A stretch of 12,023 bases of DNA from an uncultured archaeon (lineage in GTDB: Archaea > Asgardarchaeota > Lokiarchaeia > Sigyniarchaeales > SOKP01): positions 1 through 12,023 of the forward strand of contig CAZGJX010000114.1 in NCBI GenBank assembly GCA_964525635.1, written 5' to 3'. The notes below the pieces were generated by a model that was not told the origin of the DNA, did not search any database, and was given only the letters and a program-made list of their open reading frames with translations. A program made the translations under genes and the position numbers. The stretch's first letter is position 1. Each line of letters begins with the position of its first letter. Shown here piece by piece: positions 6,283-12,023 of the stretch.

Positions 6283-6654
6283 ATGATAGAATCAACAGGA
6301 GGAACGCTTGATAGTATTTTGAAGCAATTATTAGCTTCTATTCCGGAAGTAAAGTCTGCAGCTATCGTATCCGTCGAAGGGCTTCCTATAGCATCTGCTC
6401 TTCCACAAGGAGTTGACGAAACTCGTATTGCAGCTATGACCGCAGCAATTCTCTCACTTGGAGAGAGAGCAGCTCATGAAATGCAAAAAGGAGATCTAGA
6501 ACAAATAATGGTGAAAGGAAGTGATGGTGTTCTATTAGTTTTAGCAGCAGGTCCTAATGCGGTTTTAACGGTTTCTACAACTAAAGATGTTAGACTAGGA
6601 TTGATCTTTTTAGATTGCAAAAGGACTTGTGAGAAAATAGCTAAATTAATTTAA
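6283..6654 (+). CDS. Roadblock/LC7 (MglB-like) domain protein
   Basis: 123 aa with the canonical pattern SAAIVSVEGLPIASALP, RIAAMTAAILSLGERAA, LEQIMVKG..G, AVLTV and LGLIFLD. Confidence 0.95.
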   Translation: MIESTGGTLDSILKQLLASIPEVKSAAIVSVEGLPIASALPQGVDETRIAAMTAAILSLGERAAHEMQKGDLEQIMVKGSDGVLLVLAAGPNAVLTVSTTKDVRLGLIFLDCKRTCEKIAKLI

Positions 6655-6875
6655 TTCTTTAAATAATATTTCTGTTAATCTTTTTCATTATTGGTAATAT
6701 TCATTTTTCTTCTATCTAAAAACATTATTAAATTATTAATTTATTAGAGACAAATTATTTTAATAGATAAATTACTATTTCTTAAAATATAATGAAGATC
6801 TTTGTTGTTTTTCAATTTTAATTCAATAAATGAGATTTAATAACATTCTCTACTAACTTAGTAATAAATTTAAAA

Positions 6876-9800
6876 ATGAGCTCTAAAAATTTTGGTAAAC
6901 AATTGATCTCAAGATATACTGAATCAGAATGTGAAAGACAATTATTTTTAGATTTAGCTCAAATATTTCCTGAAAAATGGTATACTGACAAAAGAAAAAT
7001 TGAAAGACGTAAATATATACGCGAAAATTTATTAAAAAAATTAGGTAAAAAATATGAAGAGCTTGTTTATTCCACTCTAATAAAACTCGAAGGAATCAAA
7101 TACAATAATAATATTCTTGGACAAATTGAAGAAACCTATTTGAATCCATATTTATTTCGACAGCTATATAATGAGATGAAGAAATATAATAATCATGCTT
7201 TAATATTATTAGAACATCAATTTGAAATTCCTGAATCGTTTTTCAAATATTTATTTCCCCATAAGTCTTTAGATGATGAAATTCCTGTTAATTTTACAGA
7301 GCAAAGACCTGATATTATTATTATTGGAAATTCCTTAAGTGCATCTTTAGATCCAATTTTTGAATTAAAGCCAAAAGGAATTATCCGTGAAGTTCCTAAA
7401 GAGGAATTAAAATATCGATATGGAATAAATATAATAGATATTAAGAATGTAAGAGAAGATCATATTGGAAAGAAACAATTTGTTGAGATTTTTTATTATC
7501 TTTATACATTAAGCTATTATTTATTTGAACATAATTTGGAAGGAAAATTTTTTGTTCAGATAAAGTTTAATGGGATTTTTCCCAAATATGAAAATTATAA
7601 CTTAAATAACATTAATTCATTAAAAGATATCATAGATTTAACAGTTCAGATCCACTGGAAAGAATCATATCAACTTTTTGTTGACATTATTGAAAAAATA
7701 AGAAATCTTTGGTTAAAAAGTCCAGTTCCAATTGAATCTATTCCTGTAAATATTCAAGTTAATTGTGGATATTGTCCTTTTTTAGAGGATTGTAAAAAAA
7801 CACTTGGTATTGATGGGTATAAAGAACCTAAAGATTGGTCATTAAAATTAATTCCACATACATCTAATTCTATAGCTCAAAGGTTAAATGAATTAAAATA
7901 TATGACTATTGGTGATGTAGCTAAAAACATAAATGCTATTTCAATAGGAAATACTCCTGAACCTATTTATTCTGAATTACCATTATTAGGATTGAGAGCT
8001 AGAGCTCTTATGATAAATGAAGAGGTAAATCCTGAACCTGGAAATATTTACACATACTCACTTCCAAAATATTCATCATTTTCTGTAACTTTTGCAATAG
8101 AAACAGATCCTGCTAATGAAAGAGTGTATACTGCTGGTTTTCTTGTTGAATTATCTACTTCACCAAATGCCCCTTTTAGTGGTGTTTTTGATAATTGGTG
8201 GATTGTTTGGAAAAAATCAATTGATAATAACTATACTCCATTAAAAATTCAAAATGAATTAAATAAATATCTTACTAGGGAAATATCATTAGGAGAAGTT
8301 GGTTGGTTCCTCAATCTTATTAAAAAATTGAAAAATTTGATAATTTTACTCAAAGGGGAGGAAACAAAATCGGGAAAATTAAGAAAATCCACTAGGATTA
8401 TATATCAAATTGCTGCAGTAAATAAAAATGATACTAATGAATCCGAAGCAATATTTACAAAAGAAGTTATAAAAAAATTACATTACATAATTGAATTTTG
8501 CAATACTTTAGAAAATTATGTAGTTGTGCAGGGACTAAATTCAGGTGATTATTTTGGTCCCGCAACGAGTTTTTTTTACTGGTCAAAAAGACAGTTAGAT
8601 AATTTTCAAGATATGTTAGAAAGAAATTTAAATGAAGTGATAAATGATATCCCTATTTATAGGAAATATCTTAAAATACTCTTTTTATTTAATCCCTCTG
8701 ATTCAGAGATAACTAATCCATATCAACCTATGAAATTATTCAATGTCCAGAAGTTTTGTGAAACTGTGTTAGGACTTCCTTTAATTATAAGCTATACTTG
8801 GCATGAAATAGCACAAAAAAGATGGAATACGCTCATTAGTAAGAAATATTGGATTCCTCATTTTAATTATATGGATTCTAATAAATGGTATAAAATGCTT
8901 TTAGAAAAAGATAAGGATAAGGTTGAAAAAAAAAAAAATAATATAAAAAGACAGGTTATGCATAAAGTTAGAACAATAAATCGTCTCAGAATAGAATTTC
9001 AAATAAGGAGCAATTATAATATTTCTAAAAATGCAAATATCATCAGTAAAGATGTAATAAAAAGATCTATTTTACCGCCAGATTTCCATCCTATTGCACA
9101 AGTATGGTATTTATTCTCACGACTTACAGGGGCTATAGATCAAATGGAAAAGATAGAGATAAGAACTATGTATCCCGAATTTAGTATAGGTAAAATGAAT
9201 GCTGCTAAAGTAAGTAATCTCAAAGTTTATAAGAAGAATAACAAAACTTATAATATATTTGAGTTAAGAAATCTATCAAGTAATATGAAAATCGATATTG
9301 GAGATAGATTACTATTGATTCCCGAATTTAAACGTGATATTAGTGCAAATAGACATAAAATTCCATGGCTTATTGCTATTGATGATATTTTATGGTCATC
9401 AAAAATAAATGGATATCAAGTAAAGACTAAATCCTCTTATAATGATTTAACTGACCACTTTAGGGGAGATGAGATAAAGAAAGTAAATTTGGAAAACTTA
9501 GATTGGTACCTCTACCCGATATCTTTTGATGCATGGACAGGAAAATTATATGGTAATAATGGTTTATTAGAACGATATAATATTGGGAAATCATGGCTTG
9601 GTCAACGATTATCTTATATATGGAATATTAAATCAAAAAAAAGGATATTATGGCCTAGAAATTGGACTTTTTCGGGACCATCTTTATATTTATACTATCC
9701 TATTCTATTAAATAAAATTACGGATCATAACATAAAATTAGAAAATTCTAATTTACTAACTGATATTGATCCTATACCTGATCGTTCTCAAAAGAAAGCT

Positions 9801-11357
9801 ATAAACTTAGCATTAGAAAATTCAATTTCAGCTATTCAAGGACCTCCTGGAACAGGTAAGTCACAGACAATTGCTGCATTAGTAGATGAATATTATGAAA
9901 GGTGTATATTAAATGGAAAGAAAACTGTGCGTATTCTAATTACTGCCTTTTCTTATACAGCTCTTCGAGTCATAATTGAGAAAATACAATGCGCCCAGAA
10001 TAATTCAGGTGTTCCTACACATACATCTAAACTTCAAATGATATTTTTGAGATCACGAAATCAACCTCCTATAGAGAATAAAAATGATAACAATAATATT
10101 GATGATCTTGTACGCTACGGATCTACATGGAAACTAAATGGTAAATCTCATAGTGTTACATATACAAATCCTCTTGAAAATTCGCTTGAAGATAGCTTTA
10201 TAATGTTTGGTAATGCTCATCAATTATATTATTTACCGGAACGAGTTAATGATAATTTTTACTTTGATTTGATATGTGTTGATGAAGCAAGTCAACTTCC
10301 AGTAGATTATTTTATTTCAAGTTTACAATTTATAAAAAATAAGAAATTTAAGATAACCAAACCAGAAAAGGCAGGAGAACCAGAAAGTGAAGTTAAAAAT
10401 AAAGAAGAGATAGAAAATCTCTCTTTAGAATATGAAGAAAATGAAATTCCGTCAAAAGTTATCATTGTTGGTGATTATAATCAACTCCCTCCTGTACAAC
10501 CTGTTTCTCCCCCTAAAAATCTAAATATTATCTTGGAAAGTTTATTTGCATATTATGTAAAAAACCTTCAAATTCCAAATACCCAACTTCAAATTAATTA
10601 TAGATCAAATAAAGATATCGTTGGATTTACATCTCAACTTGGTATTTATAAAAATTTAGATGTTTATTCAGAAAATATTAATAAAACACTTTCAGGGGAT
10701 CTAGGAAAGATTAAAAAAGATTGGATAAAGGAAGTATTAGATCCGCAGAAAGTAGTTATAAGTATTATTCATGATAGAAATTATGAGATAGGGATTAGTA
10801 CTCTAGAAGCTGAAATAGTCGTTAATCTTTTAAAAGGATATTATTCTATGATTAATCCTAAAAATGAAGAAGAAGAAAGAAAATTTTGGAAAGAATATAT
10901 AGGAGTTGTAGCACCACATAATGCTCAAGGACGAGTAATAATTCGACGAATTCATTATGAACTTACGAATAATGAAGAACCAATATCAAACCTTAACAAT
11001 TCCGAATTAATGTTTTTGCTGAAAAATACAATTTATTCAGTAGAAAAATTTCAAGGTTCAGACAGAGAATTAATTATATCATCAATTGGTCTTTCTGATA
11101 GAGATCAAATATCTGCTGAAAGTGAATTTATTTATAATCTAAATAGATTTAATGTTCTTACTTCTAGAGCTAAATCTAAAGTAATTTTAATTGCCAGTAA
11201 TAGATTTCTCAAATATATTCCAAATAAAAGAGAAATAATGGAAGAATCGGCACAAATAAGAAGATTCGCTTTTGAATATTGTAATAAATCTTCTCCTATT
11301 TTGATAAAAAATGAAAAAAATAAGAATGAAAAAGTACAATTAAGATATAAAAAATAA
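6876..11357 (+). CDS. Large nuclease-helicase fusion: RecB/Cas4-like PD-(D/E)XK nuclease with 4-Cys Fe-S staple, HhH, degenerate RNase H-like domain, and Upf1/Dna2-type SF1B helicase
   Basis: Cys19 plus C297xxC300xxxxxC306; RPD146; ID188IK190; HhH-like IPHTSNSIAQRL..TIGDVA; FAIETDP. Helicase motifs Q (SQKKAI), I GPPGTGKS, Ia LITAFSYTA, II DEASQ, III VGDYNQLPPV, LQINYRS, VVAPHNAQ, V SVEKFQGSDR, VI RFNVLTSRAK. Confidence 0.9.
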   Translation: MSSKNFGKQLISRYTESECERQLFLDLAQIFPEKWYTDKRKIERRKYIRENLLKKLGKKYEELVYSTLIKLEGIKYNNNILGQIEETYLNPYLFRQLYNEMKKYNNHALILLEHQFEIPESFFKYLFPHKSLDDEIPVNFTEQRPDIIIIGNSLSASLDPIFELKPKGIIREVPKEELKYRYGINIIDIKNVREDHIGKKQFVEIFYYLYTLSYYLFEHNLEGKFFVQIKFNGIFPKYENYNLNNINSLKDIIDLTVQIHWKESYQLFVDIIEKIRNLWLKSPVPIESIPVNIQVNCGYCPFLEDCKKTLGIDGYKEPKDWSLKLIPHTSNSIAQRLNELKYMTIGDVAKNINAISIGNTPEPIYSELPLLGLRARALMINEEVNPEPGNIYTYSLPKYSSFSVTFAIETDPANERVYTAGFLVELSTSPNAPFSGVFDNWWIVWKKSIDNNYTPLKIQNELNKYLTREISLGEVGWFLNLIKKLKNLIILLKGEETKSGKLRKSTRIIYQIAAVNKNDTNESEAIFTKEVIKKLHYIIEFCNTLENYVVVQGLNSGDYFGPATSFFYWSKRQLDNFQDMLERNLNEVINDIPIYRKYLKILFLFNPSDSEITNPYQPMKLFNVQKFCETVLGLPLIISYTWHEIAQKRWNTLISKKYWIPHFNYMDSNKWYKMLLEKDKDKVEKKKNNIKRQVMHKVRTINRLRIEFQIRSNYNISKNANIISKDVIKRSILPPDFHPIAQVWYLFSRLTGAIDQMEKIEIRTMYPEFSIGKMNAAKVSNLKVYKKNNKTYNIFELRNLSSNMKIDIGDRLLLIPEFKRDISANRHKIPWLIAIDDILWSSKINGYQVKTKSSYNDLTDHFRGDEIKKVNLENLDWYLYPISFDAWTGKLYGNNGLLERYNIGKSWLGQRLSYIWNIKSKKRILWPRNWTFSGPSLYLYYPILLNKITDHNIKLENSNLLTDIDPIPDRSQKKAINLALENSISAIQGPPGTGKSQTIAALVDEYYERCILNGKKTVRILITAFSYTALRVIIEKIQCAQNNSGVPTHTSKLQMIFLRSRNQPPIENKNDNNNIDDLVRYGSTWKLNGKSHSVTYTNPLENSLEDSFIMFGNAHQLYYLPERVNDNFYFDLICVDEASQLPVDYFISSLQFIKNKKFKITKPEKAGEPESEVKNKEEIENLSLEYEENEIPSKVIIVGDYNQLPPVQPVSPPKNLNIILESLFAYYVKNLQIPNTQLQINYRSNKDIVGFTSQLGIYKNLDVYSENINKTLSGDLGKIKKDWIKEVLDPQKVVISIIHDRNYEIGISTLEAEIVVNLLKGYYSMINPKNEEEERKFWKEYIGVVAPHNAQGRVIIRRIHYELTNNEEPISNLNNSELMFLLKNTIYSVEKFQGSDRELIISSIGLSDRDQISAESEFIYNLNRFNVLTSRAKSKVILIASNRFLKYIPNKREIMEESAQIRRFAFEYCNKSSPILIKNEKNKNEKVQLRYKK
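8926..8938 (+). repeat. A13 homopolymer inside the nuclease-helicase gene
   Basis: ggttgAAAAAAAAAAAAAta, encoding E-K-K-K-N in frame. Confidence 0.9.
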
Positions 11358-11377
11358 ATTAACATATGGGATAATTT

Positions 11378-12023
11378 ATGGTAAATACAAAATTCCTTCA
11401 TATTGCTGATTTACATCTTGGTAAGAGGCAATATAATATTCATGAAAGATATAATGATTATTTTCATGTTTTTGAATGGATTTTAAATACATCTATTAAA
11501 AAAGAAGTAGATTTTATTCTAATTTCTGGGGATATGTTTGATAATAGAAAGATTGGTCCTACTGTTTTAACAGATGTATTTAATAAAATATCTGAATTTA
11601 AAAAAAAAGCCAAAAAAGTTTTAGATCGTGATATTCCTATTATATGTATCGAAGGAAATCATGATAATCCTATTTATTCAAACCAATCTTGGATGACTTT
11701 TCTTGCTGATTTGGATTTAATTATCCTTCTCTCAGGAGAATATAATAAGAAAACAAAAAAGATAATATTTAAACCATATGATGAAAAAACTCATCGTGGT
11801 GGAAAGATAAAAATAAATGGTATAACAATTTATGGACTTCCATTTTTTGGAAGCTCAACAACACATATATTTCCTCAAATTTATGATGCAATTGAAGATA
11901 ATAGTAAAGATGTTGTTATTTTAATGATGCATTTTGGAATAGCGGGATATGATCCATTAAAACCAGGAATAGAACGATCGGATAATCTGGAAAAATTAAA
12001 GGAAAAAGTAGATTATCTTGCAT
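11378..12023 (+). CDS. mre11: Mre11/SbcD family DNA repair nuclease (calcineurin-like metallophosphoesterase), 3'-partial
   Basis: Hand translation from ATG 11378 gives MVNTKFLHIADLHLGKRQY...ISGDMFD...IEGNHD...LMMHFGI...VDYLA. Motifs I-IV are present and the frame is open to the window end, just before the expected motif V GHxH. Not in the ORF track because there is no stop codon. Confidence 0.92.
   Translation, partial: MVNTKFLHIADLHLGKRQYNIHERYNDYFHVFEWILNTSIKKEVDFILISGDMFDNRKIGPTVLTDVFNKISEFKKKAKKVLDRDIPIICIEGNHDNPIYSNQSWMTFLADLDLIILLSGEYNKKTKKIIFKPYDEKTHRGGKIKINGITIYGLPFFGSSTTHIFPQIYDAIEDNSKDVVILMMHFGIAGYDPLKPGIERSDNLEKLKEKVDYLA

Follow-up and report, generated by a model that had tools for sequence, protein, structure and literature searches.

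Gene organization and conservation of the HEL locus

The DNA analysed here (the window, 12,023 bp) is an entire contig, C114, of a 4.45-Mb Lokiarchaeial (Asgard) genome with 27% GC and an estimated completeness of 100%. On its forward strand, a gene encoding a 1493-amino-acid (aa) fusion of a nuclease with an SF1B helicase (P0001, designated HEL) is followed, after only 20 bp, by the 5′-part of an mre11 gene, confirming the arrangement recorded in a preliminary description of this DNA. The missing C-terminus of Mre11 (from residue ~219) is encoded at the start of contig C7 (G000:C7:34-879), and the gene that follows is rad50 (C7:898-3627, 909 aa), as that description had predicted, and then rpb7. 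In a relative with 78% identity (L033), HEL, mre11 and rad50 are present in this order on one single contig. Judged from these sequences, HEL, mre11 and rad50 form one operon, of which the window holds the first gene entire and about half of the second. In the designations used, G000 is the source genome, other G numbers (G0xx, G1xx and G2xx) are related genomes, L numbers (L0xx) are loci, C numbers are contigs and f numbers are families. The features of the locus are as follows.

6655 to 6875, + strand: intergenic region 5′ of HEL, 221 bp, AT-rich; the Roadblock gene ends at 6654
6876 to 11357, + strand: HEL (P0001), nuclease / exonuclease-like / SF1B helicase fusion gene, 1493 aa
6876 to 7865, + strand: HEL residues 1-330, Cas4-like PD-(D/E)XK nuclease domain with a four-cysteine (iron-sulphur, Fe-S) staple
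8073 to 9035, + strand: HEL residues 400-720, DEDD / RNase H-like 3′-5′ exonuclease fold, catalytic tetrad incomplete
9159 to 9524, + strand: HEL residues 762-883, Sen1/SETX-type beta-barrel accessory domain known from Upf1-like SF1B helicases
9723 to 11354, + strand: HEL residues 950-1493, SF1B (Upf1/Dna2-like) helicase core with Walker A motif GPPGTGKS at 989-996
11358 to 11377, + strand: HEL-mre11 spacer, 20 bp, in which no terminator-like site was seen
11378 to 12022, + strand: 5′-part of mre11, first 215 codons, with phosphoesterase motifs I-IV; runs off the contig end

The operon promoter is presumed to lie within the intergenic region at 6655 to 6875; a sigma-70 promoter scan of the window was uninformative, the host being an archaeon.

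Conservation of the adjacency in related genomes, on which the preliminary description had made its proposal depend, is borne out. Some 20 Lokiarchaeial genomes and contigs keep the order HEL-mre11-rad50, among them that of the cultured Lokiarchaeum ossiferum (CP163304, L061; HEL, 1512 aa; Mre11, 511 aa; Rad50, 902 aa), and wherever the contig permits, HEL orthologues with at least 40% identity are followed by same-strand genes for Mre11 (~500-555 aa) and Rad50 (~900 aa). There are two exceptions, G038, in which a 3.2-kb insert with metabolic genes separates HEL from mre11, and G035, in which HEL is divergent from mre11. Across 41 relatives, HEL and the operon-type Rad50 have a near-identical pattern of presence and absence, and their identities to the proteins of the source genome fall in parallel (79, 74, 59, 52, 48 and 41% for HEL versus 74, 62, 48, 37, 34 and 32% for Rad50). 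By these comparisons, HEL is inherited jointly with Mre11-Rad50. The genes flanking the operon vary from genus to genus; most have housekeeping or metabolic roles, among them those for Rpb7/Spt4, ribosomal proteins S15/S3Ae, TFIIB and transporters. At three loci, from two independent lineages, a gene for an ATP-dependent DNA ligase is located no more than 2-4 kb from the operon (L034:6350-8137(-), L035:20257-21774(+) and L043:1577-3085(-)).

Upstream of the operon, the window also encodes a Ras-family small GTPase (1212-1763, +; Ras, 3e-44) and a Roadblock/LC7 protein (6283-6654, +; 1e-20). Both are eukaryote-like signature genes typical of Asgard archaea, and their arrangement is kept in L033.

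Domain structure of HEL and its relation to Dna2

HEL belongs to a family of Asgard proteins of ~1490 aa that are colinear from end to end. Sequence models detect only its C-terminal SF1B helicase (Pfam AAA_11, 8e-14; AAA_12, 4.9e-19), with partial matches to MkoA, DpdJ and IGHMBP2. When a profile of 22 family members was compared with solved structures, the top match was mouse DNA2, over helicase domain 2A only (2.9e-15, 58 bits), followed by IGHMBP2 and Upf1, and a search for homologues of the helicase domain returned only family members among the matches listed. The N-terminal domains have no match to the Cas4/RecB models PF01930 and PF12705, and a permissive Pfam scan of 29 of them gave scattered noise only. 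The N-terminal domain has, nevertheless, both the fold and the catalytic and cysteine motifs of a Cas4/RecB-type Fe-S PD-(D/E)XK nuclease, with the signature C19, RPD146, D188xK190, E204xxxY208 and C297xxC300x5C306 invariant in the family alignments. Of these residues, C19, D146, D188, K190, E204/Y208, C297 and C300 do not vary in a tier of distant relatives either, and C306 does not vary within the Asgard group. On these motifs, which are intact, the N-terminus of HEL is a predicted Fe-S nuclease of the Cas4 type.

Residues 400-720 have the fold of a DEDD 3′-5′ exonuclease, and E409, H643 and H662x4D667 within them are invariant. The catalytic DEDD(h/y) set is, however, incomplete: A, S, N or G stands in place of the first acidic Exo I residue in 21 of the 22 sequences, and an invariant Exo II aspartate was not found in their alignment. 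The activity of this domain is therefore doubtful; rather than a standard exonuclease of the proofreading type, it is more likely to be a module for DNA binding or scaffolding, or a nuclease of a non-canonical kind.

The outline of HEL (a four-cysteine Fe-S PD-(D/E)XK nuclease ahead of a beta-barrel and an SF1B helicase) is Dna2-like, as the preliminary description had noted, but HEL has the additional DEDD-like domain. Relative to eukaryotic Dna2, which functions with MRN/MRX in long-range resection, that domain adds ~320 aa, and HEL is ~450 aa longer overall. The further suggestion that HEL is a eukaryote-like or ancestral Dna2 does not hold. The Pfam models Dna2 (PF08696) and PDDEXK_1 have no match in P0001 at E<=0.01, nor in the 29 family N-termini at E<=1, and an hhalign comparison of the HEL nuclease with an alignment of Asgard Dna2 nucleases gave a non-significant probability of 1.9%, with only the QxxxY helix aligned. 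PF08696 finds nothing convincing in the source genome and has no match in any of the 40 genomes from the window's family. The same model identifies a protein of ~970-1030 aa in 34 of 201 Asgard genomes (21/21 in f7, 6/7 in f16 and 4/10 in f24). This separate ~1000-aa family matches PF08696, PDDEXK_1 and AAA_11/12 and is far closer to mouse DNA2 (1.5e-61, 212 bits, versus 2.9e-15 and 58 bits for the HEL family); it is presumably the family of Asgard homologs that PMC12680538 relates in a brief statement to eukaryotic Dna2. Four f16 genomes (G054, G073, G192 and G203) encode both proteins. HEL was therefore rejected as the Asgard Dna2 orthologue or an ancestral Dna2, as it lacks a Dna2 domain signal and a far closer Asgard family exists with which it coexists in f16, and this coexistence likewise excludes HEL as a simple substitute for Dna2 across the phylum. 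By these criteria of sequence, HEL resembles Dna2 in design only and is not its orthologue.

Two further observations concern the Asgard Dna2-like proteins themselves. Two of the ~1000-aa orthologues (L082:2971-5880(-) and L083:4765-7749(+)) have a weak, below-cutoff C-terminal RING match (zf-RING_2, 2e-4 and 4e-5). Family f2 Lokiarchaeia encode a 1200-1238-aa Dna2-like protein (PF08696, PDDEXK_1, Dna2_Rift and AAA_11/12) with a 762-aa same-strand gene directly after it (L087:4745-10655 in G025:C7 and L088:1034-7050 in G028:C309). The 762-aa gene of L087 encodes a topoisomerase IA/III-type enzyme (Topoisom_bac, 6e-94), a pairing that recalls eukaryotic Dna2 with Sgs1-Top3.

When 1.84 billion proteins were searched with a profile of the HEL N-terminus, 291 cluster representatives were retrieved, the majority being ~1500 aa in length or fragments. 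Named members are from Lokiarchaeia/Promethearchaeota, Hermod-, Heimdall- and Hodarchaeales, Sigynarchaeum, Harpocratesius and the cultured L. ossiferum. HEL is present in 18 of 201 sampled genomes of the phylum (f1, 9/40; f2, 1/3; f16, 5/7; f27, 1/2; f29, 1/3). The distant tier consists of proteins of ~1400-1450 aa, probably bacterial, that combine the same N-terminal module with an SF1B helicase. They match the TM0106 model (TIGR03491) weakly (1.9e-5; bit scores of 23.8 and 14.4, where the cutoff is 97.45), and TIGR03491 has no match at E<=1 in residues 1-760 of either P0001 or P0061. The TM0106-family RecB-like putative nucleases have the same N-terminal pairing as HEL, a Cas4-like nuclease with an RNase H/DEDD-like fold, but the model, unlike HEL, is without a helicase. 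Other known helicase-nucleases, namely AddAB, AdnAB, RecBCD and the DNA2-like Bad of Geobacillus (PMC7430649), differ in having SF1A or mixed motors and, in AddAB and AdnAB, a C-terminal nuclease. None of them is in an operon with an archaeal Mre11-Rad50 and none has a DEDD-like insert.

The Mre11-Rad50 partners and HerA-NurA

The Mre11 part in the window matches Metallophos (Pfam, 1.5e-14), and its top NCBIfam models are archaeal Mre11, although the score (84.7 bits) is below the equivalog cutoff of 500 bits for models that were built on other archaeal groups. A full-length orthologue has P. furiosus Mre11 as its top PDB match (8.9e-26), and all five motifs (I-V; DxH, GDxxD, GNHD, H and GHxH) are present in the full-length orthologues examined, the window ending after motif IV with the contig. 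The top PDB matches of Rad50 are the M. jannaschii (1e-19) and P. furiosus proteins. The 909-aa Rad50 has GxNGxGKS at 30, SGGE at 813 and FFDEP at 839, with a long coiled coil between. At its apex, the canonical CxxC zinc hook is replaced by C-P-x5-C (CPILNEKC; C459 and C466) in 14 of 16 orthologues, and CPVC is kept only in two divergent lineages (L047 and L064). The zinc hook model PF04423 has no match anywhere in the source genome.

Both proteins are closer to archaeal Mre11 and Rad50 than to bacterial SbcCD. A quick maximum-likelihood tree of Rad50 agrees with taxonomy (values of 96 for the f1 clade, 100 for the window's genus and 93 for G029 with G033), which argues for vertical descent rather than frequent transfer. 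These results contradict the preliminary proposal of a horizontally acquired second SbcCD paralogue. Copies of Rad50 linked to herA and nurA (G039 and G029) fall among the HEL-linked ones in the tree, and the Mre11 of G039 has 40% identity over 488 aa to HEL-linked Mre11. By this phylogeny, the operon encodes a vertically inherited archaeal repair pair, of the same lineage as in herA-mre11-rad50-nurA clusters.

The source genome has a second cluster (G000:C25:21434-31831, L056), with genes on one strand for pAgo (Piwi, 754 aa), NurA, HerA, Mre11 (425 aa), a short Rad50 (692 aa) and an OLD-family nuclease. The Rad50 from C25 is a very long outgroup branch in the tree, and the Mre11 from C25 has 26% identity to HEL-linked Mre11. 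As clusters of this type are patchy, occurring in 11 of the 41 relatives, and none was found in the other three genomes of the source genus, the C25 cluster is not clearly the housekeeping copy; in those three genomes the operon-type Mre11 is the only Mre11 detected. A third type of Mre11, of ~396-409 aa, is present in several Lokiarchaeial genomes (among others at G023:C14:49891-50562, G022:C73:2936-3610 and G038:C1:441525-442190), and in some complete genomes (G010, for example, 100% complete) no Mre11 was found at E<=1e-8.

The preliminary description had considered the system to be independent of HerA and NurA. This is correct for local gene order only, as neither herA nor nurA is adjacent to the operon in the source genome (C114 plus C7) or at most orthologous loci. 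It fails as a wider statement, given that NurA-family genes are present in 39 of the 41 relatives, and that the gene order in G039 is HEL-[200-aa open reading frame]-herA (DUF87, 4e-41)-mre11-rad50-nurA, all six genes being clustered. HEL of G039 is a C-terminal fragment at the contig start, with the N-terminal part on another contig. G029 and G037, in which the Mre11-Rad50 pair is of the same lineage, have the order [200 aa]-herA-mre11-rad50-nurA without a HEL orthologue. The arrangement that the preliminary description named as refuting such independence, with herA-nurA directly downstream, is thus seen in a minority of genomes; HEL, however, is not a sporadic neighbour. The 200-aa open reading frame directly 5′ of herA (L090:1118-1720 and L093:4089-4691) is 43% identical in G039 and G029 and has no Pfam match.

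In comparison with the classical archaeal system, the Mre11-Rad50 lineage is the same, the role proposed for HEL is like that of HerA-NurA (a motor with a 5′-strand nuclease), and HEL occupies the position of herA beside mre11. The enzymes themselves are unrelated. HerA belongs to the hexameric FtsK/HerA-type ATPases and NurA to the RNase H-like nucleases, and HEL combines an SF1B helicase and a PD-(D/E)XK nuclease in a single chain. Because the herA/nurA-linked copies share the Mre11-Rad50 lineage of the operon, HEL was apparently added upstream, with herA and nurA later lost from the cluster in most lineages. Two related suppositions found no support. The solo NurA of the source genome (on C71) has no BLASTP similarity to the operon NurA of G039 that would mark it as a relocated operon NurA, and HEL-Mre11-Rad50 does not alternate with the NurA-HerA-Mre11-short-Rad50 cluster, since the f1 genomes (10 with the one, 10 with the other, 3 with both and 8 with neither) are close to independence.

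Proposed function and alternatives

Conservation of the operon, its canonical lineage of Mre11-Rad50, its link with herA and nurA and the intact motifs of nuclease and helicase are all shown by the sequences. We favour, at a probability of roughly 0.55, a role for HEL as an accessory helicase-nuclease of end resection, in cooperation with Mre11-Rad50; HEL is probably a DNA-end-trimming machine of a new kind. In such a pathway, Mre11-Rad50 would recognise a DNA end and open or clip it, HEL would load on the 5′-terminated strand with its SF1B motor moving 5′ to 3′, and the N-terminal nuclease would digest this strand in the manner of Dna2, AddB and AdnAB, so that a 3′ tail remains for RadA. As the motor of long-range resection, HEL may act alongside HerA-NurA or in its place. 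A stronger version, that Lokiarchaeia have replaced, or are replacing, the HerA-NurA motor with a single-chain Fe-S nuclease/SF1B helicase that works directly with Mre11-Rad50, is put forward only tentatively, as somewhat less probable than its opposite. The stages of such a replacement would be preserved in living genomes, from herA-mre11-rad50-nurA (G029 and G037) through HEL-herA-mre11-rad50-nurA (G039) to HEL-mre11-rad50 (most genomes).

Several facts weigh against a resection role. We infer the substrate, the polarity, the degradation of the 5′-strand and any contact or cooperation with Mre11-Rad50 from sequence. Among the 41 close relatives, HEL is patchy, varying within genera, and it was not found in many that are 98-100% complete, as expected of a dispensable module. 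In two congeneric genomes, the flanking genes that enclose the operon in G017 enclose instead, in G005, an unrelated HATPase_c gene of 433 aa, with no detectable remnants of the operon; such replacement at a syntenic site, together with patchiness, is a pattern also common for defence genes. The surroundings of the distant relatives at L059:607-7060 and L060:1303-8599 look like a defence-type context, with a DUF1156/N6_N4 methylase gene 4 bp before, or two BamHI-like genes plus a methylase, and ParE, Fic and other toxin-antitoxin genes nearby. Within the operon's own flanks, a TIR gene is adjacent at one locus and a type IIG restriction-modification gene at one locus. Finally, a paralogue clade with ~35% identity and two Heimdall-group homologues have no Mre11-Rad50 neighbour, from which it follows that a HEL-type protein can work without the pair.

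One alternative is anti-virus or anti-plasmid defence, with Mre11-Rad50 sensing the free or unusual ends of invading linear DNA and HEL degrading that DNA processively. Accessory, patchy occurrence inside genera and replacement of the cassette are consistent with such a role, as are the restriction-modification and toxin-antitoxin surroundings of distant relatives, the single adjacent TIR and type IIG genes and the location of the source genome's other Mre11-Rad50 cluster between pAgo and an OLD nuclease. The HEL helicase core also resembles MkoA, DpdJ and other defence helicases, and Rad50 resembles LmuB. In a PADLOC search, however, the matches to MkoA (Mokosh) and DpdJ (Dpd) were confined to the helicase core (residues ~970-1040 and 1190-1490), Rad50 gave only generic SMC/Rad50-type matches, such as that to LmuB (Lamassu), Mre11 gave none, and no full-length match to any system protein was obtained. 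With mostly housekeeping or metabolic flanks, a Rad50 tree that tracks taxonomy and so indicates vertical descent, the same Mre11-Rad50 lineage in classical herA-mre11-rad50-nurA clusters and, in three other genomes of the genus, no other Mre11 found, we consider defence unlikely. It is a little more unlikely still that HEL is a replication-fork or Okazaki-flap enzyme, a functional substitute for Dna2 that acts with Mre11-Rad50 at stalled or reversed forks and not at two-ended breaks. The Dna2-like outline, DNA2 as the top solved match of the helicase and the failure to find a PF08696-type Dna2 in the source genome or in any of the 40 genomes of its family would fit this role, but most genomes of that family have neither the module nor a Dna2 that could be found, so HEL cannot supply an essential replication function. 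Its constant partner is, moreover, Mre11-Rad50 and not a replisome gene, and in f16 it coexists with a true Dna2 orthologue. That the three genes are mere neighbours, with HEL acting independently of Mre11-Rad50, is suggested by the solitary paralogues and Heimdall-group homologues, the insert in G038 and the divergent HEL in G035; given an adjacency held down to ~40% protein identity, in several families and amid unrelated flanks, and an almost perfect linkage in presence and absence, this is very improbable.

We found no published description of a HEL-mre11-rad50 operon. Two of its features are oddities in their own right: a Rad50 apex that reads CPx5C instead of CxxC, and a DEDD-like domain whose active site is incomplete. 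A 2026 review (PMC13748450) lists as open what happened to NurA, how Exo1/Dna2-type resection arose and how non-thermophilic archaea resect their DNA ends, and the operon, present also in a cultured species, is a concrete and conserved candidate for end resection in such archaea and for the fate of HerA-NurA on the way toward eukaryotes. Replacement of HerA-NurA by HEL, if true, would be parallel to the MRN-plus-Dna2 arrangement and not ancestral to it. Likewise, any eukaryote-like resection by HEL would be parallel and not ancestral, the real Asgard orthologue of Dna2 being another protein, which agrees with what PMC12680538 briefly states.

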